DNA from: an uncultured Nitrososphaerota archaeon
Lineage (GTDB): Archaea; Asgardarchaeota; Njordarchaeia; Njordarchaeales; Njordarchaeaceae
DNA length: 64,000 bases
NCBI GenBank assembly: GCA_964518475.1
Contig: CAZFGR010000001.1
Coordinates: forward strand, 320,001 to 384,000
Direction: 5' to 3'
The notes under the pieces are model-generated. The model was not told the DNA's origin. It searched no databases and saw only the letters and a list, made by a program, of their open reading frames with translations. Positions 53,014-61,842 of this stretch are shown piece by piece. A program made the position numbers and the translations under genes. The stretch's first letter is position 1; the number at the start of each line of letters is the position of its first letter.

Positions 53014-53113
53014 GCGGGGGTGCCCGAGAGGTCAAAGGGGCCAGTTTCCTAAGGTCATACTGAGGCTCTGGTGGCGCAGGCCTTCGCGGGTTCGAATCCC
53101 GCCCCCCGCACCA
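53014..53113 (+). tRNA. tRNA-Leu(GAG) with 14-nt intron at 30/31 (53045-53058)
   Basis: GCGGGGG acceptor; spliced CCAGA-CT-GAG-GC-TCTGG; BHB helix GGCC/GGTC; long variable arm; CCA. Confidence 0.92.
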
Positions 53114-53193
53114 ATCTATACCTCTGAACATTTAATAACATATTCTTCTTCTCCTTAGCATCATTCCTCGAACCATATTATGAGAGGATAACA

Positions 53194-54273
53194 TTGCGTA
53201 TACTTGAGATCGATAAAAAACAAGGCCTCATCAAGATTCTAGTGGAGAACACCGATGATCTGTATGTCTTGTTCTCTTTCATAAGACCCGGCGACATAGC
53301 GGTGGCGAGAACCTCAAGACGCATAAAGATTCGAGAAGGCGTATCTGTGCGAAAACCAATGGTTCTAAAAATAGAGATCCAAGACGTGGGGTTTCACGAG
53401 TTTGCAGAAATGTTGCGATTAAAGGGAAGAATTCTTGAGGGGCCTGAACGTTTCGTCTCCATAGGATCTTACCACACAATTAATGTAAAAGCGGGCGATT
53501 CTATCACAATAATAAGGCCGGAAGGCCTCAGTGATATTGATCTACAACCCCTCAGAGAAGCCGAGGAATTGACCAAGTTTAGCCCTATATTATTGATAGC
53601 TATTGAAGAAGAAGAAGCCACAATCGGAGTCTTAACTTCTTACGGATTAAAAGTATTAACCAGCGTCCGAGGAGTTTTCGCTGATAAATCCGATAAAGAG
53701 TATGAATCCCGCTTACGCAAATTCTTCTCCGATGTCTTAAGCGTTGTTTCAGAAGCTATAAACCAGTATGAGCCACAAGCAATAATTATTGGCGGCCCTG
53801 GATTCACAAAAGAACACTTCGCAGATTTTGTTAAGGAAAGACTCAACAGGAAGATCCCCATTCTGATTGACTCCGTCACTAGTGGTACTGAGGCCGGCCT
53901 CTACGAATTAATTAGACGAGGCACACCTCAGAAAGTTTTGGCTGAGCAGCGAGTAGCTGAGGAGACAGCGAAAATAGAAGAATTACTCATGCATATTGGG
54001 AAAAACGATAGATTAGCGGTCTATGGATACGAAGAAGTCAAAGAAGCATTAGAGATGGGGGCCGTAGAGACCTTGATGATATCAATGTCTCTTATAAACA
54101 CCACTGATTTGAATCTTAGAAAGAGGATCTTGGAACTCGTGAAATTGGCCAAAGCTACGAGGAGTAGGATATTATTCGTAAGTACGATGCATCCTGCAGG
54201 GAAGCAATTTGCGCGACTAGGTGGAATCGCGGCCATACTAAGGTACCCTATAAAAACATTAAATCATTATTAG
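53194..54273 (+). CDS. pelA: mRNA surveillance protein Pelota (aDom34)
   Basis: DDLY.L, RLKGRI, GSYHT, GPGFTKE, LGGIAAILRY. Confidence 0.95.
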   Translation: MRILEIDKKQGLIKILVENTDDLYVLFSFIRPGDIAVARTSRRIKIREGVSVRKPMVLKIEIQDVGFHEFAEMLRLKGRILEGPERFVSIGSYHTINVKAGDSITIIRPEGLSDIDLQPLREAEELTKFSPILLIAIEEEEATIGVLTSYGLKVLTSVRGVFADKSDKEYESRLRKFFSDVLSVVSEAINQYEPQAIIIGGPGFTKEHFADFVKERLNRKIPILIDSVTSGTEAGLYELIRRGTPQKVLAEQRVAEETAKIEELLMHIGKNDRLAVYGYEEVKEALEMGAVETLMISMSLINTTDLNLRKRILELVKLAKATRSRILFVSTMHPAGKQFARLGGIAAILRYPIKTLNHY

Positions 54274-54312
54274 TATCATAAGTAAGGACTAGACAAGGAA
54301 GGAGGAGAATTC

Positions 54313-54975
54313 ATGCCGAGGCCTCTTCTACAAATAGCTCTGGATCTCATAGACTTGAAAAAAGCTCTCGAGTTAGCCCGAGTTTTGGTCGAAAATAATG
54401 TCGATATCGTGGAGGCCGGCACCCCCCTTCTATATGCTCACGGCGTTCGTAACGTAATACCAAAGCTGCGGCAAATTGTTGGTGATCGATCCCTCATATC
54501 CGCTGATTTGAAGATTTCTGATGCTGGTGCTTTGTCTAGTAAAATAGCGTTCGAGCATGAGGCCGATATAGTATCGGTGATAGGGGTGGCCTCTGAAAAA
54601 ACGATCTTGGATGCTCTAGATACTGCTAAAGAATACGGAGGCCAAGTAATGGTTGATTTGATCTGCTCTAAGAACCTAGTTGATGATGCTTTAAAGGCAC
54701 TAAAACTTGGCGCGGATTATGTACTGGTCCATGTGGGCCTAGATCAGCAATCCTCAGGAGTAAAAGTTGTAGATAGACTAGAGAGGATAGGGGGAATAAT
54801 ACCTCCGAAGAAACTCGCCGTAGCGGGAGGCATAACACCACAGAATGCTCATGTGGTACTAAAGTACAACCCAGCTATAATGATTGTAGGGGGAGCAGTC
54901 TATAGATCACCTAACCCAGCAGAAGTCCTTCGTAAACTAAAAGAGATTATTCAGTTAAGCGGTTCTGATCAATAA
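54313..54975 (+). CDS. hps: 3-hexulose-6-phosphate synthase (OMPDC/HUMPS family)
   Basis: LQIALD, EAGTPL, ADLKISDAG, HVGLDQQ, AVAGGI. Confidence 0.88.
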   Translation: MPRPLLQIALDLIDLKKALELARVLVENNVDIVEAGTPLLYAHGVRNVIPKLRQIVGDRSLISADLKISDAGALSSKIAFEHEADIVSVIGVASEKTILDALDTAKEYGGQVMVDLICSKNLVDDALKALKLGADYVLVHVGLDQQSSGVKVVDRLERIGGIIPPKKLAVAGGITPQNAHVVLKYNPAIMIVGGAVYRSPNPAEVLRKLKEIIQLSGSDQ

Positions 54976-55411
54976 CTGGCTCTACCTCTAACGGTTTTCT
55001 TAAACTATATTCTACGATACGCCCCTGCTTCCTCGAAATCAAGAAACCATCCTCTTCCAGCCTTCTCAGGTATGTCGAGCACGTAGATACTCTAATTTCC
55101 TCTCCAAAAAGCTCCTCATAAGCCTCTTTAGCCTCCAAGCTGTTAAACCATTGACCATACCTGAAAACCGTTGATATCGCTTGTTTGAGCCTCTCGTATA
55201 TGGATATATTTGTCCTAGCTCTCGGCTTCTCACTACTCGACTCCACAGTGTTTGCACCCGATATTATGTTCGAGATAAATTTCTGCAAGATCTTAAGCTG
55301 CTTCTCACCAAAATCACTACTGATAGATACCTCGAGCTCCAAATCACCCTTCCGCAGTTTCAATTTAAGGCCACTGTTGTCTGCCACTGGAATCTCCCGA
55401 GAAACACTCAT
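54947..55411 (-). CDS. Winged-helix DNA-binding protein adjacent to the putative origin
   Basis: WFNS..AKEAYEELFGEEI..STCSTYLRRLEEDGFL...KQGR..EY. Confidence 0.75.
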   Translation of the reverse strand: MSVSREIPVADNSGLKLKLRKGDLELEVSISSDFGEKQLKILQKFISNIISGANTVESSSEKPRARTNISIYERLKQAISTVFRYGQWFNSLEAKEAYEELFGEEIRVSTCSTYLRRLEEDGFLISRKQGRIVEYSLRKPLEVEPVIDQNRLTE

Positions 55412-55557
55412 TATTTATCCCTAGTCTCGATGATTGATACTCACCATGGACTATATAAACAGGCGAAACACATTAGAAACACAGGATCTCTAACCAAGAA
55501 CATAATTTGATAAGGAAATCACTCAATGGAAAAGATCTTCACTATGAAGATCCCATG

Positions 55558-56080
55558 CTCTCCTTGTTTCCAGTGGAAACCGAGTCTATGAATCGCTCGA
55601 ATTACAGCTCTAATTAAACATTTTGATTTTTTCGAGTCAGAGACTCTAGTCTCATTTACTAAAGACTTTCTCTATACTTGATTCATGATACTAAACAATA
55701 TTCCATAACTAGAATTAGCAACCTTATTATTCTCTGATAGTGTTCCCGTAGTTAGCTAATACTGCGTAATAAACATCGCCGAGAAGAGTTAGCTGGAGAT
55801 CATTAGAGTGCAGGTGTGTAGACGCACTGTTAAAGGGTCTTTTCCAATAGAAATATGGGGGGATTGTTTCTTCACATTTCACAACATTGTGAATATTTTT
55901 TGAACCCCCTCATTTCCAGTGGAAACATCGAAACGAAGCATTCCTTGTTCACAACAAGGCAATTGATACAAAATAAAATTTTCTCACTGTGATCTTTGCA
56001 AAATGAAGCGATTTTTGGCCAATCGGCGCATTTTGAATTTTTCACACTTACACTCTGTGAACACCAAATTTCCACTGGAG
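55558..56080. other. Putative chromosomal replication origin (oriC) with ORB elements
   Basis: GTTTCCAGTGGAAAC 55566-55580; TTTCCAATAGAAATATGGGGGG 55841-55862 (+); GTTTCCACTGGAAATGAGGGGG 55905-55926 (-); CTCCAGTGGAAA 56069-56080 (-); AT-rich 42-nt spacer between the inward-facing G-strings. Confidence 0.8.
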
Positions 56081-56133
56081 AATACTTGATATGGTATGTC
56101 AAGAAGAACAGCTTATTATACGAGAACAAAGGT

Positions 56134-56241
56134 TGGTGCGGGGGGCGGGATTCGAACCCGCGAAGGCCTGCGCCACCGGATCTTGAGTTTGGCCCTGAGT
56201 CAATAAAGTCCGGCCCCTTTGGCCAGCTCGGGAACCCCCGC
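56134..56241 (-). tRNA. tRNA-Leu(CAA) with 21-nt intron at 30/31 (56189-56209)
   Basis: Spliced CCGGA-CT-CAA-GA-TCCGG; BHB helix GGCC/GGCC; long variable arm; CCA. Confidence 0.92.
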
Positions 56242-56441
56242 ATGCTGATTCTATCATCGATAAATAGTGGTTCCATTTTTTTAAAACTATTCCTGCAATT
56301 GATTAGAGAAAACAAAAAGATTTTCTAACAGCTGCAAGTAAAAAGATATATCAACGGAACCGCAATATCCCCTGTTAAAGAAATTAGATTAGATAAGAAT
56401 AAATAAGGATAAAGGGAATCCCTTTTCTAGAGGTGTGAAGT

Positions 56442-56669
56442 ATGGTTAAGCTCACTCTACCTGATGGTAGAACTATAGAAGGTGAAGAAATAAAATTCGA
56501 GCCGATTAAGGAGGACTGGAATATTTATAGATTAGAGGATGGTAGAATACTGAAAGTGAAACTTGTCTTAGTCAAAGTATATAAAACGTCGGAGAGGGAT
56601 CCAATTACAGGAGAACCCATATATGTGACAGTATCAACAAACGTCGTAACTACATCTTCCAAACAATGA
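56442..56669 (+). CDS. Small hypothetical protein
   Basis: GAGGTG RBS; EDWNIYRLEDG...DPITGEPIY. Confidence 0.7.
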   Translation: MVKLTLPDGRTIEGEEIKFEPIKEDWNIYRLEDGRILKVKLVLVKVYKTSERDPITGEPIYVTVSTNVVTTSSKQ

Positions 56670-56686
56670 TTTAAGGGAGAGAGAAT

Positions 56687-56923
56687 ATGTCTTCTCTTTC
56701 AGTTAATTTAACGGTATACGAGATCGATTACCTTCGCCAGAAAATTAGTAAAACTAGTACAATGAATCTCAGTGATACAAGAATAAGATCTCATGAGGTC
56801 GTCCTCTCGACCAGAACTGAACTTAAAGAGCTCTTAAGGAACCTTAGGGCACGTGCCGCTATTTTTTCCGACGAAGAGATATTAGAGGAAATAAAGAAAT
56901 GGAGAGAAGAGAAGAAGCACTAG
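56687..56923 (+). CDS. Putative antitoxin
   Basis: 78 aa, SDEEILEEIKKWR C-terminus, overlaps the PIN gene. Confidence 0.55.
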   Translation: MSSLSVNLTVYEIDYLRQKISKTSTMNLSDTRIRSHEVVLSTRTELKELLRNLRARAAIFSDEEILEEIKKWREEKKH

Positions 56924-57366
56924 GCATTGTCATGGACACTAATGTGCTCGTCTCAGCTGTTCTCTCAACTCATGGAAAATGTGCTCGAATTCTGGAGTAT
57001 GTTATCGATGGTCTTATAATAAATTTCATCTCCGTAGAGATCTTATGTGAACTAAAATGCGTATTAAGCAGACCCAAATTTGCAAAAGTCTTGTCCCAAG
57101 AAGATATTAATAACTATGTACAACTCATAAGACAAGTCTCGAATATCGTCATTCCTCTTACTAGAATCTCTGTATGTAAAGATCCCGATGACAATAAATT
57201 TCTGGAGGTCGCATACGACTCTTGTGCTCAGATAATTGTAAGTGGAGACCCAGACCTACTTTCCTTGAGAAACGCGCATACAAGAGAGACAAAGATAATG
57301 AATAAGAGGATCAAAATACTAGGTCCTACAGAACTTCTAGCATATATTCACAAGAAGAAACCATGA
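56899..57366 (+). CDS. PIN-domain (VapC-like) putative toxin
   Basis: DTNVLVSA, CKDPDDNKFLEVA, IVSGDPDLL. Confidence 0.9.
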   Translation: MERREEALGIVMDTNVLVSAVLSTHGKCARILEYVIDGLIINFISVEILCELKCVLSRPKFAKVLSQEDINNYVQLIRQVSNIVIPLTRISVCKDPDDNKFLEVAYDSCAQIIVSGDPDLLSLRNAHTRETKIMNKRIKILGPTELLAYIHKKKP

Positions 57367-57642
57367 AAACAACCAGCATATACGCTCCACCTTCACGAGA
57401 AAGAAATATCATGCTCAGTTTGAGATACTTTTAGATGCTAAAGAATTGTTCTCTAAGTTTTGATAGGTCTAGATCTTGTTTTTAGTCCTTCGAGAGCTCC
57501 TGTATTATCCATGATGCGTTAGGAATGTTGCATGAGAAAGCTACTATTTGTTTGGCTGATGGAGTGGGGTAAAACCTAGATATGATTCTTAGTATAAAAT
57601 GTCTTTGAGGTTCAGATGTTGTTCTAGTAAGGGGTTGTCGGT

Positions 57643-58616
57643 TTGATAACGAGCCTAGAGATTCGGAATTTCAAGTCTATAAGACATATAAGAATAGATT
57701 GTAAAAGAATTAACGTTTTTATCGGCGAGCCTAATTCTGGGAAATCCAACATCTTAAAAGCCATAGGTTTTCTCTCGTACCTCGGCTTGGGCGGTGCCCC
57801 TGAAAAATACGTGAGAACTAGGGTTTTCAGGGAGCTATTCTACGATAAGGACATTGAGCAAGAACTTGTCATAAAAGCGAATTTTGCCGAAGTCTCCGCG
57901 AAGGTGGAAGATGCTAATATAATGTTCAGATATAGGATCGATGGCCCGAATCATCTGAACGGAGAGAGGGAAGACGGCCTGTGCGTCCAGATTTTTTCGT
58001 GGAATCTTTAGGTGTTGATCAGTTGAAGTTTTTCCGTTTTTATCGTTTCTTGGGCACAATAGGGACTAGGTCTGAGCCGACTGATTATCTTTACCCTCCC
58101 TCAGGTGATAATCTCTTGGGCGTATTGTATAGCAATCCCAATTTGAGGATGCTTATCGGTAGTTTGTTTGAGAAGTTCGGGTATAAGCTTATCATTAAGC
58201 CGGATGAGAAACGGATCGAGATTTTGAAGATTATGGATGGTGTTGGCATCTCTCTTCCTCCGTATCTTGTCTCTGAGACATTGTTGAGAATGGTGTTCAA
58301 TTTTACCGTTATCGAATCTAATAAGGGAGCGGTAATAGCGCTTGAGGAACCGGAGAGCCATGCTTTCCCTTTTTATGTGAAAATGCTGGCGGAATCTATT
58401 GCCGACGATAAGGAAAATCAATATTTCATATCCACTCATAATCCCTACTTCCTCATACCTCTAGTTCAGAAAACCCCAATAAAGGATATTAACGTGGTTG
58501 TCACCAAATTCTCAAATTATGAAACAAAGGTTTACGTCGTATCTAAGGAGAAACTTTCAGAGCTCTTAGATCTTGATGTTGACGTCTTCTTTAACCTAGA
58601 GCGCCTAATAAGGTGA
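57643..58616 (+). pseudogene. ABC/AAA_21-type ATPase split by a -1 frameshift near 57960-58010
   Basis: Walker A (GEPNSGKS) in the first ORF; Walker B LEEPESHAFP and STHNP in the overlapping second ORF. Confidence 0.8.
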
Positions 58617-58620
58617 GGAG

Positions 58621-59124
58621 ATGAAAGAGATAATCGTAGAATGTGAACCAGACAAAAAACTTATCGAAACTATAGTCGAAGTTGAGAAATTGAAAACAAG
58701 AGTTGATATCGATATAATTCATGCTGGAGATAAGCCGAGAGTGCTAAAACGTACTCTCAAAATTGCAGGGTCAGTAGGAGTTATTGATGAGGATCTATGG
58801 AGCGCTCAACCATCTGCTCTTAAGAAGTTCAAAGAGATGAGCGAGGATAACGATTTGATGATAAGGATATACAAGGGACCCAATGGTTCCACTCTCGTTG
58901 AATTAAGGCCTCGTCTTGAGGAATGGTTGTTGAGATTATGTAAGCTCTTTGGGATAAACCCTAATGAATATAGCTGTCCTCCAGATTTATTCAAGAAAAT
59001 AGTTAATCAAAAACTAGATAACCTTGGGAAACTTTTAGACGAGTTGCATCGCAAATCTCAGCACCTTAAGAGGTTCCATCAACTTATGGTTGATCTCATT
59101 AGTCAAGTTTCTCCGTCAGAATAA
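58621..59124 (+). CDS. TOPRIM-like (DUF4435-like) partner of the ABC ATPase
   Basis: IIVECEPD and GVIDED acidic motifs; GAGGAG RBS directly after the ATPase stop. Confidence 0.6.
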   Translation: MKEIIVECEPDKKLIETIVEVEKLKTRVDIDIIHAGDKPRVLKRTLKIAGSVGVIDEDLWSAQPSALKKFKEMSEDNDLMIRIYKGPNGSTLVELRPRLEEWLLRLCKLFGINPNEYSCPPDLFKKIVNQKLDNLGKLLDELHRKSQHLKRFHQLMVDLISQVSPSE

Positions 59125-59641
59125 AAGGGGGCACTTCTCAAAATAGTTGAGATGTTTTGGATTATTTAGGCAAATATTATCTCTTTCCGCAACCCGGTTC
59201 TAGCCAGTTAATGCCTTTCGCGACTTTGTGGTAAAGTGCCTTTATGGGTACTCTATCCATATTTATCTGTGACCACACAGGGGAGAGATGCCTCGATGAG
59301 AGTATACCAGCTCGGTAAGCTTATAGCTATGACGTTAAGAAAAAGCTACCAATCCATTATGAACCGAATTGAGAGCAAAGTGATAGTGTAAGTGTCTAAG
59401 TTTGTCTCTAGTTATGGGGTCATAAAATTCCCTGTAATGGGTTTGTCCCAGAGGGTGTTCATCTGCAGATTGAGGCCTGATGAGCTGTGTGCCCAAGCGG
59501 CGTCTCTCGCTGATAGGTGCCCATTGAAGGGGATGATATGCGGAATGAGAGTGAGTATTTCTCAACTAAATTAAATATAACTAAATTTTGGGAATACTTA
59601 TTGGGAGTGAAAAACGTAGTGTAACATAGTAGGTGGTCTCT

Positions 59642-59845
59642 ATGCCCATAGTGCATGTTTACATGTGGAGTGGTGTTTCAAAGGAAGCCAAGATCAAGAT
59701 AATAAAGGGGATCACGAAGACTTTCGAAGAACTCGGAATACCAGCACACGCGGTTGAGGTAGTGATACACGAGATACCTAAGGAAAACTGGGGCGTAGGA
59801 GGAGAACAGGCAAGCGAGAAATTCAAGGAGACAAAACCTCCATAG
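59642..59845 (+). CDS. 4-oxalocrotonate tautomerase family protein
   Basis: N-terminal Pro (M-PIV), VVIHEIPKENWGVGG. Confidence 0.9.
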   Translation: MPIVHVYMWSGVSKEAKIKIIKGITKTFEELGIPAHAVEVVIHEIPKENWGVGGEQASEKFKETKPP

Positions 59846-60086
59846 TTTCAGGTAGCTTTCACTCCTGAATACGATGGTTGTGAGTCCTATGTTTCGACAA
59901 AATTAATCTCCACTTGTTCACAGTTCCGCGTACACCGCAATTAAAGGGCATAAAACTTTACATTTAATTTCCTCTTATATTTGGGAAAAGTCAAGTTTGG
60001 GTCTATCAGGTTGAGTGAAAAGAACTCGTTTACAATTATGAAACCTTTTGGAATTATGTGAACTATTAATGTTTAAGTGTTAAAGA

Positions 60087-60889
60087 ATGAGGAGTCAAAG
60101 ACAAACAGCATCGAGGAGAGCCACTCAACCGAAATCTTATTATTTTGCGATGCAGGCTTCTTGGGGTCTGACCAAGCATATGGGTGGGTTGAAAGCTACT
60201 AAAGAGCTGATTGAATTATGTCGCGTTAATAAAGACTCGTGGGTTCTGGAGGTTGGTTGCGGCGTCGGAATAACCGTTTGCTACATAGCAAAAGAGTATG
60301 GCTGCGAAGTGGTGGCGGTAGACATTTCCGAAGAGATGATTGAGAGGGCCAAAAAAGAGCTAAGAGAAATGGTGTTAAGGATAAAATCGAGTTTATAGTT
60401 GCGGATGCGCAAAACTGCCCTTCAAGGACAGCCTCTTCGACGCTGTTATCTGCGAGTTTCGTAATTGTCTTCATAGAGGATAAACAAGAAGCAATAAAGG
60501 AATTCAAACGAGTGGTAAAGCCTGGAGGCTACGTTGGGTTTAATGAAGTAACATGGATAGAAAACCCATTTTCAGAGCTAGTTGAGTATTTGTCCCGTGC
60601 CTTAGGCGAGGCGGAATTTCTGACCCCTGAAGGCTAGAAAAGCTTACTGAAAAAAGCCGGTTTCTCCAACATAATAGCCAGGATTTATAAAACTACGGCA
60701 TGGGGTCAGTGGATTAGCGAAATTAGAGCAATAGACATCAGAGATGTCTTGGGTGCGTGGGCCAGATTCCTAACACTACTTTTCAAGAGCCGAGAAGTGA
60801 GAGAATATGCAAGGGAAATAAGTAGGCCGCCTAAAAGTGTTTTCAGGATTTTTGACTACTTTAGCTATGGGATATACGTTAGTAAATAA
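60087..60889 (+). pseudogene. Class I SAM-dependent methyltransferase pseudogene
   Basis: VLEVGCGVG motif I; continues through frameshifts as ADAQ/LPFKDSLFDAV/KPGGYVG; in-frame TAG near 60635. Confidence 0.85.
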
Positions 60890-61119
60890 GACAGTGATCC
60901 TTCATCCAGCGTGGGCACATTTTATACACCTTAGCTTGCGATTATAACCTTCGAGAAAAATCAAGGTTGCGTGGATAGTATCTGACACATATGGACTTGT
61001 TTAGATTCGAGATTGAAAGTCGGCCAGAAAATAGAGCAATAATAGTTGACAAAAAGTCAAAATTAATAGAGCAATAATAAACAACAAACAATCAAGTACT
61101 TACTATTGGGTAAGGATCT

Positions 61120-61842
61120 ATGCGAGTTGTTGTGAAAATAGGTGGCTCTGTTCTCTGGCCCGAGAGAACTTTGGATAAGGATCGATTTATCTCGTGGGCT
61201 AAAGTCATTTGTTCTCTGGCTCAGAAAGTGGACAAATTACTTGTTGTTACTGGCGGAGGCTATATCGCGAGGGAATATATAAGGGTTTTGAGAGAGGCTG
61301 GTGGCTCCTCGTTTGAAGGGGATCTGCTGGGGATTCACGTATCTAGGGTAAACGCGTTTTTGCTCCTGAGTATTTGTAAGAACTTGTGTAAGATAAATGC
61401 ATATCCTGAGGTAATATTATCTGTCAATGATGTTCTCCGATTGATTGATTTTTATCAAGTGTTTTTCTCGGGCGGGTTCTTTCCGGGCCAATCAACAGCT
61501 GGTGTGGCTGCGGAGATAGCTGAGGCTGCGAGAGCAGATATTATCCTATTAGCTACTAACGTTGATGGTATCTATACGAGTGATCCTTTCAAGGATCCGA
61601 ACGCGAAGAAGATCCCTATAATAAGTACTCAGGAATTGCTAGAGATAATTAAGAATTACGAAGCAGAGGCCGGGACGTATAGATTAATAGATCTAAACGC
61701 GCTTAAGATTATTCAGAGAGCGAGGATCCCTGTTGTAGTATTTAATGGGAATAAACCGCAGGAAGCTGTTCAGATTATAGATCTTGTTAAGAGGAACGAC
61801 TTAAAGGCTGTGACTAAGTATGGGTCATTGATTACTCCTTAG
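61120..61842 (+). CDS. pyrH: Uridylate kinase (archaeal)
   Basis: KIGGSV, GGGYIAREYI, PGQST, TNVDGIYTSDP. Confidence 0.93.
   Translation: MRVVVKIGGSVLWPERTLDKDRFISWAKVICSLAQKVDKLLVVTGGGYIAREYIRVLREAGGSSFEGDLLGIHVSRVNAFLLLSICKNLCKINAYPEVILSVNDVLRLIDFYQVFFSGGFFPGQSTAGVAAEIAEAARADIILLATNVDGIYTSDPFKDPNAKKIPIISTQELLEIIKNYEAEAGTYRLIDLNALKIIQRARIPVVVFNGNKPQEAVQIIDLVKRNDLKAVTKYGSLITP

Follow-up and report, generated by a model that had tools for sequence, protein, structure and literature searches.

We propose that a gap of 722 bp at 55412-56133 in the DNA of an archaeon of the order Njordarchaeales (Asgard), lying between a small winged-helix (wH) gene and a tRNA-Leu gene, is very probably an origin of chromosome replication and belongs to the oriC1 type that is conserved in archaea, that is, the type with origin recognition boxes (ORBs) and an Orc1 initiator. 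This is an in silico assignment and it is made because the gap holds a unique cluster of ORBs, because the cluster is conserved in relatives, and because the composition skew switches at the cluster independently of the coding strand. The same evidence supports an earlier note on this DNA, which had read the gap as a replication origin with inverted ORBs. The window referred to throughout is the whole stretch of 64,000 nucleotides that was analysed, namely, positions 320001-384000 of contig C1 (402,640 bp) in a metagenome-assembled genome (MAG) of 2.33 Mb that consists of 121 contigs and is 91% complete. No paper on ORB elements or on a sequence-defined origin for any Asgard archaeon was found in the literature searched, which is an incomplete library and gives no proof of novelty. 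The closed Odinarchaeum chromosome has been oriented by skew alone (PMC9246712). The locus described here supplies base-precise, conserved Asgard origin sequences and a matching Orc1.

The ORB cluster

When the pattern TTCCANTGGAAA was searched for with at most one mismatch, sites were found at 55568, 55842, 55914, and 56070 and at no other place in the 64-kb window. These pattern sites are within 515 bp of each other and the four ORBs to which they belong span 55566-56082, all in non-coding DNA. The statement of the earlier note that a gap of about 720 bp holds four ORB matches is therefore borne out. There are about 36 such sites in the whole assembly, and this locus is the only one where at least two of them occur within 1 kb. 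For four or more sites to fall within 520 bp, the Poisson probability is 1.7e-10, or about 8e-7 when corrected over all windows.

ORB1 (55566-55580, minus strand, GTTTCCAGTGGAAAC) has a perfect core and a degenerate G-string on the side of the wH gene. ORB2 (55841-55862, plus strand, TTTCCAATAGAAATATGGGGGG) has one mismatch in its core and ends with GGGGGG (55857-55862), a G-string that points right, into a spacer at 55863-55904. ORB3 (55905-55926, minus strand, CCCCCTCATTTCCAGTGGAAAC) has a perfect core, fits the consensus TCCAGTGGAAATGAGGGGTC found in relatives, and starts with CCCCC (55905-55909), its G-string pointing left into the same spacer. ORB4 (56068-56082, minus strand, ATTTCCACTGGAGAA) has one mismatch in its core and, like ORB1, only a degenerate G-string (GGTG). 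The arms of ORB2 and ORB3 form a 21-nt inverted repeat that is 81% complementary and faces inward across the spacer. The spacer is 42 nt long and 76% AT, as against 61% for the window, which places it in the top 3% of 42-nt windows. Thus, the two inward G-strings across a 42-nt AT-rich spacer, which the earlier note had described, are indeed there. From its position, the spacer is presumed to be the unwinding element and the site of MCM loading. The assembly of the origin itself is supported because one contig in the public run X1 covers 54534-56161 with zero differences.

Strand composition

The cumulative G-C curve along C1 falls nearly steadily from the left end of the contig to a minimum and then rises to the contig end. 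Its global minimum is at contig position 376,075, which is window position 56075 and lies inside ORB4. The earlier note had seen a change in plus-strand composition to the right of the gap by eye only, and had suggested a cumulative skew along the contig as a check. The change can now be given in numbers. To the left, along 375.8 kb, the GC skew of the plus strand is -0.051, and to the right, along 26.8 kb, it is +0.122.

Since plus-strand genes make up 73% of the coding bases on the right, the effects were separated by class. The skew goes from 0.097 on the left to 0.211 on the right in plus-strand genes, from -0.203 to -0.084 in minus-strand genes, and from -0.044 to +0.074 in DNA outside open reading frames (ORFs). 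At third codon positions it goes from 0.011 to 0.229 in plus-strand genes and from -0.187 to 0.075 in minus-strand genes. The shift, about +0.12, is seen separately in every class tested, namely, the genes of both strands, non-ORF DNA, and third positions. Because plus-strand genes, minus-strand genes, and non-ORF DNA show the same shift, gene orientation does not explain it. A shift that is independent of the strand is the pattern expected of replication asymmetry.

This pattern bears on another explanation of the cluster. Regulation of transcription is another known role of Orc1/Cdc6 paralogues, Orc1-2 of Saccharolobus being one example. The ORB array might thus be a set of regulatory operators for the divergent wH gene, and it would be in keeping with this that ORB1 is about 155 bp upstream of the wH start and near a TATA-like box and that the genome has two divergent Orc paralogues. 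Alternatively, the array might be a dormant origin, such origins being known in haloarchaea (PMC4595724). However, an inverted pair of G-strings around an AT-rich spacer is the layout of an origin, and the array is the sole ORB cluster of the assembly. Moreover, the composition switch is centred on the cluster and does not depend on the strand, which implies that replication has long started from this place. We therefore regard operators or a dormant origin as improbable and prefer the reading of the gap as a chromosomal origin.

Some observations weigh against that reading. The right arm is only 26.8 kb long and about 6% of genome windows of such size equal its absolute skew. In G034, a closed relative, one local minimum of the sampled skew coincides with the ORB locus, but there are other minima and the curve is too noisy to be decisive. 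The AT enrichment of the spacer is only moderate. Lastly, in a MAG of this contig number and completeness other origins cannot be placed, and neither can an orc1 gene past the end of C1, which is 26.7 kb off.

Conservation in related genomes

The layout is common to the genus. In six genomes the order is the wH gene, pointing away, then a distal ORB, an AT-rich stretch, a pair of ORBs with facing G-strings, and a further ORB. The facing G-string ORBs are 43-115 bp apart in the six congeneric loci, and the distal ORB is homologous to ORB1 in all six, with a clear G-string in G003 and G005. ORB4 is kept beside the tRNA in G002, and tRNA-Leu(CAA) flanks the origin in five of the six congeners. 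Among these genomes the ORBs are conserved whereas the intervening DNA retains only about 67% identity or no detectable similarity. Conservation of the ORBs extends to other Njordarchaeales. A perfect inverted repeat at 55534-55552 was also considered as a conserved site but it was rejected because, by eye, it has no counterpart there in the closest congener, G002.

The initiator gene is unlinked

A search of the whole assembly found three genes that bear a Cdc6_C domain, two on contig C3 and one on contig C15, and none on the 402-kb contig C1. This confirms the claim of the earlier note that the origin has no adjacent orc1/cdc6 gene. One of the genes on C3, at the locus L001, codes for a protein of 414 amino acids (aa) with an intact Walker A motif (GKTGTGKT), whose best solved relatives are Sulfolobus Cdc6-1 (2QBY_A, 1.7e-107) and Aeropyrum ORC1 (2V1U, 9e-101). 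These two relatives are the initiators that have been solved on ORB DNA. The L001 protein is orthologous, with 44-51% identity, to the Orc1 that is found beside ORBs and a wH gene in closed Asgard genomes. The other two Cdc6_C proteins are divergent paralogues, one of them with a degenerate Walker A motif. On the basis of these similarities, the L001 protein is predicted to be the Orc1-1-type initiator that is cognate to the ORBs and binds them.

Between the origin and the end of C1 there are 26.7 kb, and between the L001 gene and the nearer end of C3 about 22 kb; therefore, orc1 and the origin are at least about 49 kb apart. A tblastn search with the three Orc proteins found no orc1 in 13 Njordarchaeales loci, each of which took in 6 kb to the left and to the right of the wH gene. 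In most of these loci ORBs with G-strings are upstream of the wH gene. Since none of the 13 loci has a nearby orc1, the unlinked orc1 is a trait of the order and not an accident of assembly. In the short gap before the unlinked orc1 on C3 (about 540-620 of L001) there is one ORB-like word with an insertion, TCTCCAGTCTACTTGAAGTAGGGTC, and no ORB cluster. This word could be an autoregulatory site.

The winged-helix gene

The gene that is most faithfully linked to these origins is not orc1 but the small, unnamed wH gene. In the window this gene, P0001, lies at 54947-55411 on the minus strand and, as read from its ORF and translation, codes for 154 aa and is transcribed away from the origin. A TATA-like box (TTTATATAG, 55451-55459, minus strand) is about 40 nt upstream of its start codon and TATATAA-like words occur at an equal distance in five congeneric loci. 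We infer that this box is the promoter of the wH gene. The protein is made of an N-terminal beta-hairpin and helix, a variable linker, and a C-terminal wH domain. In the AlphaFold2 model the wH domain (residues 70-140) has a predicted local distance difference test (pLDDT) score above 90, and the beta-hairpin and helix are weakly modelled. The closest homologues of P0001 are in records named Candidatus Njordarchaeales or Njordarchaeota.

Searches of Pfam, NCBIfam, PDB sequences, PDB structures (by Foldseek), and the ESM Atlas gave no specific family name for the protein but only generic wH matches or 'hypothetical protein'. That the wH domain might be a detached Cdc6_C domain was considered and rejected because P0001 has no BLASTP match to the three Orc proteins of the genome. 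The CDT1 family is absent from the Pfam matches of 14 members of the wH family at E values up to 1. A search of genomes with PF08839 (CDT1) gave zero matches anywhere, the control genomes included, and is therefore uninformative. Across the family the recognition helix, STxSTYLxRL, is near-invariant.

A profile of the family was built from 14 Njordarchaeales members. The family was found, mostly in single copy, in 13 of the order's 14 genomes and in 175 of the 251 Asgard genomes that were sampled. Among 1.84 billion proteins the profile matches 291 representatives (50% identity), and those with a name are, among others, from Bathyarchaeota, Methanothrix, Methanosarcinales, and Methanoperedenaceae. 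Of 17 loci from eight other Asgard families, 15 have one or more ORBs with a G-string within about 1 kb on the 5' side of the gene. In the closed genomes G034 and G048, orc1, the wH gene, and the ORBs are within 3 kb and 3.5 kb, respectively, and in G037 and G079, also closed, they are spread over about 11 kb. In G014, a closed Asgard genome of 1.42 Mb, the ORB pair, the wH gene, and orc1 come in that order within 3 kb (locus L069, 622.6-625.5 kb of its contig C1). Two Bathyarchaeia loci have, in this order, DP1, orc1 on the minus strand, ORBs with G-strings, and the wH gene on the plus strand. In Methanothrix (L063, 6001-9315) the wH gene is directly upstream of an intein-containing MCM gene, and on a Methanoperedenaceae contig it is about 3.6 kb from a gene with a weak GINS (Gins51_C) match. 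Taken together, the comparisons suggest that the ancestral layout was likely one in which orc1, the wH gene, and oriC were together, and that Njordarchaeales lost the linkage to orc1 and kept the wH gene. No description of a conserved wH neighbour of archaeal origins was found in the literature searched, with the same limit on novelty as above.

A second conserved word, TGTGAA

Besides the ORBs, the gap holds a second repeated word. TGTGAA or its complement TTCACA occurs six times where 0.36 is expected (P = 2e-6), TGTGAA is the most enriched of 532 hexamers in the gap, and only 5 of 22,483 genome windows hold at least six such words. Three hexamers of this class are in the spacer, at 55871, 55878, and 55888, and three further ones, at 55948, 56041, and 56056 (55948-56061), complete the cluster. 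When the 900 bp upstream of the wH gene were pooled from 30 loci of Asgard, Bathyarchaeia, and Methanothrix, 128 TGTGAA words were counted against 17 expected from the rest of the loci. The word is present in 27 of the 30 loci, ranks first of all hexamers, and is far above 89 other words of the same composition. Its extended form is roughly TTGTGAAT.

In G037 and G079, 5 kb separate the wH gene from the ORB and the TGTGAA cluster has remained at the ORB, with nine copies within about 600 bp. It is therefore an origin element and not merely an element of the wH promoter. Three genomes in which the wH family was not found were compared as well. G024, which is closed and of the same family as G034, has orc1 and ORBs, the wH segment being replaced by other sequence, and there is no TGTGAA cluster at its ORBs. 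Nor is there one at the ORBs of G016 and G050, where the wH family was not found. The replacement in G024 (locus L116, 640.5-641.5 kb of its contig C1) is a GC-rich sequence of about 1.1 kb between orc1 and the ORBs, in which no wH match and no Rfam family was found. In Methanothrix the 1-kb gap upstream of the wH gene at L063 has several TTCACA/TGTGAA words and no canonical ORB.

Because of this co-occurrence and the near-invariant recognition helix, we propose that the wH protein may bind TGTGAA. By extension, and as a tentative proposal that falls somewhat short of an even chance, it may be an undescribed and widely conserved origin factor of Asgard and Bathyarchaeia, with relatives beside MCM in Methanothrix, that binds TGTGAA words interleaved with ORBs and acts with Orc1 in licensing or regulating initiation. 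Several points count against this proposal. The wH fold is generic, and MarR, ArsR, BlaI, and PadR come above the wH domains of Orc proteins. The link between the wH gene and TGTGAA is a co-occurrence in related genomes, and intergenic DNA was compared with DNA that is mostly coding. The set without the wH family consists of three genomes, of which only G024 is closed, and absence is less certain in G016 and G050, which are MAGs of 95-100% completeness. Finally, G014 has few TGTGAA words at its ORBs.

Another explanation, which we consider a serious possibility if not one to bet on, is that the origin is real and the wH gene is a mere syntenic neighbour, for example, a small transcription factor of the ordinary kind. 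In that case an Orc paralogue or a chromatin protein, and not the wH protein, would occupy the TGTGAA words, or the words would belong to an extended unwinding element. The generic matches of the wH protein, the clusters that stay at the ORBs of G037 and G079 while the wH gene is 5 kb off, and the paucity of the words in G014 would all be accounted for in this way. What a mere neighbour does not readily account for is that linkage of the wH gene to ORBs has outlasted that of orc1 in Njordarchaeales and spans phyla, that in Methanothrix the gene adjoins MCM and the DNA upstream again has TGTGAA words, that a near-invariant recognition helix fits a conserved target, and that a TGTGAA cluster is likewise absent from the ORBs of G024, G016, and G050, the three genomes that gave no match to the wH family.

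The flanking tRNA and the island

To the right of the origin is a gene for tRNA-Leu(CAA) (56134-56241, minus strand) that has a 21-nt intron and an encoded CCA. It was found with the intron mode of ARAGORN and was missed by ARAGORN in default mode and by Rfam in both gathering and E-value modes. Beyond the tRNA is a stretch of about 4.9 kb (56242-61119) and then a pyrH-like amino-acid-kinase gene (61120-61842, plus strand; Pfam AA_kinase), which is 62% identical by tblastn to a gene of G002 and serves as the right anchor of synteny. In G002 and G003 the pyrH-like gene comes directly after the tRNA and the stretch is absent; therefore, the 4.9-kb island is an insertion specific to this genome. 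The earlier note had the origin flanked by a small wH gene and a tRNA plus accessory island. The wH gene and the tRNA are there but the island is this genome-specific insertion beyond the tRNA and is outside the origin.

Besides small ORFs, Pfam shows in the island a PIN-domain protein, an AAA_15 ATPase that is split and has a partner gene beside it, a tautomerase, and an S-adenosylmethionine (SAM) methyltransferase that is broken, and no integrase, Rep, or orc gene was found in it. The ATPase, of the AAA_15/AAA_21 type, is in two overlapping ORFs (57643-58011 and 57981-58616) and is followed by an ORF of 167 aa (58621-59124) without a Pfam match; this looks like a frameshifted ATPase pair of the defence type. 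The class I SAM-methyltransferase (60087-60890), at the far end of the island, has an ORF with methyltransferase matches for its first 103 aa only. The remainder of the fold seemingly continues in other frames, and the gene appears to be in decay.

Some features of the public runs concern these flanks. A second intron-bearing tRNA-Leu (AAG) is 3 kb to the left on the opposite strand (53014-53113) and shares an identical stretch of 41 nt with tRNA-Leu(CAA). Unitigs of the public runs break at the tRNAs, and a contig of run X2 joins 53113 to 56134 and skips the intervening 3 kb, a join that probably arises through the shared 41 nt. In run X1 the word depth of the contigs of the island (56507-61515) is about 34 as against 44-46 for most of the flanks, with loose ends at 56130-56422, which hints that part of the population is without the island. 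The stretch 53090-54563 also has a depth of about 34-35, however, and the signal is ambiguous.

These flanks had led the earlier note to recall origins derived from captured elements. According to that explanation, which takes Sulfolobus oriC3 and its protein WhiP as the example, the wH gene would be the initiator of a captured extrachromosomal element and the tRNA and the island would be the scar of its integration. A small wH gene does sit in the usual place of an initiator gene, a tRNA and a variable island are beside the origin, and the lower depth of the island in run X1 is a weak point in the same direction. The ORBs, however, are canonical and of the oriC1 type; the order of wH gene, ORBs, tRNA-Leu, and pyrH is common to the genus; and the pairing of wH gene and ORBs recurs in the eight further Asgard families and in Bathyarchaeia, usually with a vertically inherited Orc1-1 orthologue. 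The island, for its part, is beyond the tRNA, is absent from G002 and G003, and is without an integrase or a replication gene, and the 14 wH members have no CDT1 among their Pfam matches. Derivation from a captured element is thus contradicted by several findings and is highly improbable. The origin, to judge from these comparisons, is ancestral and not captured.

Proposed mechanism and significance

The model of MCM loading and opening at ORB origins has been worked out for oriC1 of Sulfolobus and Aeropyrum (PMC3607249, PMC5333045). By analogy with these, Orc1-1-type monomers, supplied in trans from the L001 gene on C3, would bind all four ORBs. The two whose G-strings face each other (55841-55862 and 55905-55926) would hold two Orc1 molecules in opposite orientation beside the spacer, where MCM would be loaded and the duplex would open, and firing of the origin would give bidirectional replication. 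Long-term use of the site could then have produced the switch in strand composition. A second and less certain layer would be that the wH protein sits on the TGTGAA words in and beside the spacer and modulates or assists initiation or the structure of the origin.

What the locus offers in the main is a probable origin of the ordinary oriC1 type with an unlinked initiator gene in a lineage without a previously described origin. The wH gene and the TGTGAA words are the part that merits follow-up. Together they make a candidate new origin factor, for which the genomes without the wH gene are natural controls. If the proposal is true, then it adds a second sequence-specific origin component in the archaeal lineage that is closest to eukaryotes, and one that is linked to the origin more tightly than orc1 itself.

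Comparison with known origins

There is a close likeness to oriC1 of Sulfolobus/Saccharolobus, where the ORBs also have a TCCAGTGGAAA core with a G-rich extension, inverted ORBs flank an AT-rich region, and the initiator is of the Orc1-1 type. Both Orc1-1 and the sites that it binds are regarded as conserved throughout the archaea (PMC3607249). Unlike in Sulfolobus, where orc1-1 is directly adjacent to oriC1, orc1 is here on another contig, and the TGTGAA cluster and the conserved small wH gene are not part of Sulfolobus oriC1 as it is described in the literature that was found.

In Aeropyrum pernix, an ORB origin is bound by ORC1 monomers and neither cdc6 gene adjoins the predicted origins (PMC5333045). 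The initiator gene is thus unlinked to an ORB origin in that organism as it is here, and this is a published precedent showing that adjacency is not obligatory, although A. pernix belongs to a different phylum. To our knowledge, neither a conserved wH neighbour nor a second repeated word has been reported at A. pernix oriC1.

In the orc1-oriC-polD (DP1) neighbourhoods of Euryarchaeota such as Pyrococcus and Methanothermobacter, replication genes cluster at the origin (PMC2643942). The Bathyarchaeia loci, with DP1, orc1, ORBs, and the wH gene, are like these. In the window, on the other hand, no known replication gene flanks the origin and the wH gene alone remains.

Sulfolobus oriC3 resembles the present origin in having a winged-helix gene, that of WhiP, beside it in place of orc1. 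WhiP is a Cdt1-related protein with tandem wH domains that is found in some Crenarchaeota only, and its origin is independent of Orc1/Cdc6 and is thought to be derived from a captured element. P0001 differs from it in having a single wH domain with an N-terminal beta-hairpin module, and its family has no CDT1 among the Pfam matches of the 14 members at E values up to 1. WhiP binds repeats at its own origin (PMC3607249). P0001 is found at a canonical ORB origin that is vertically conserved.

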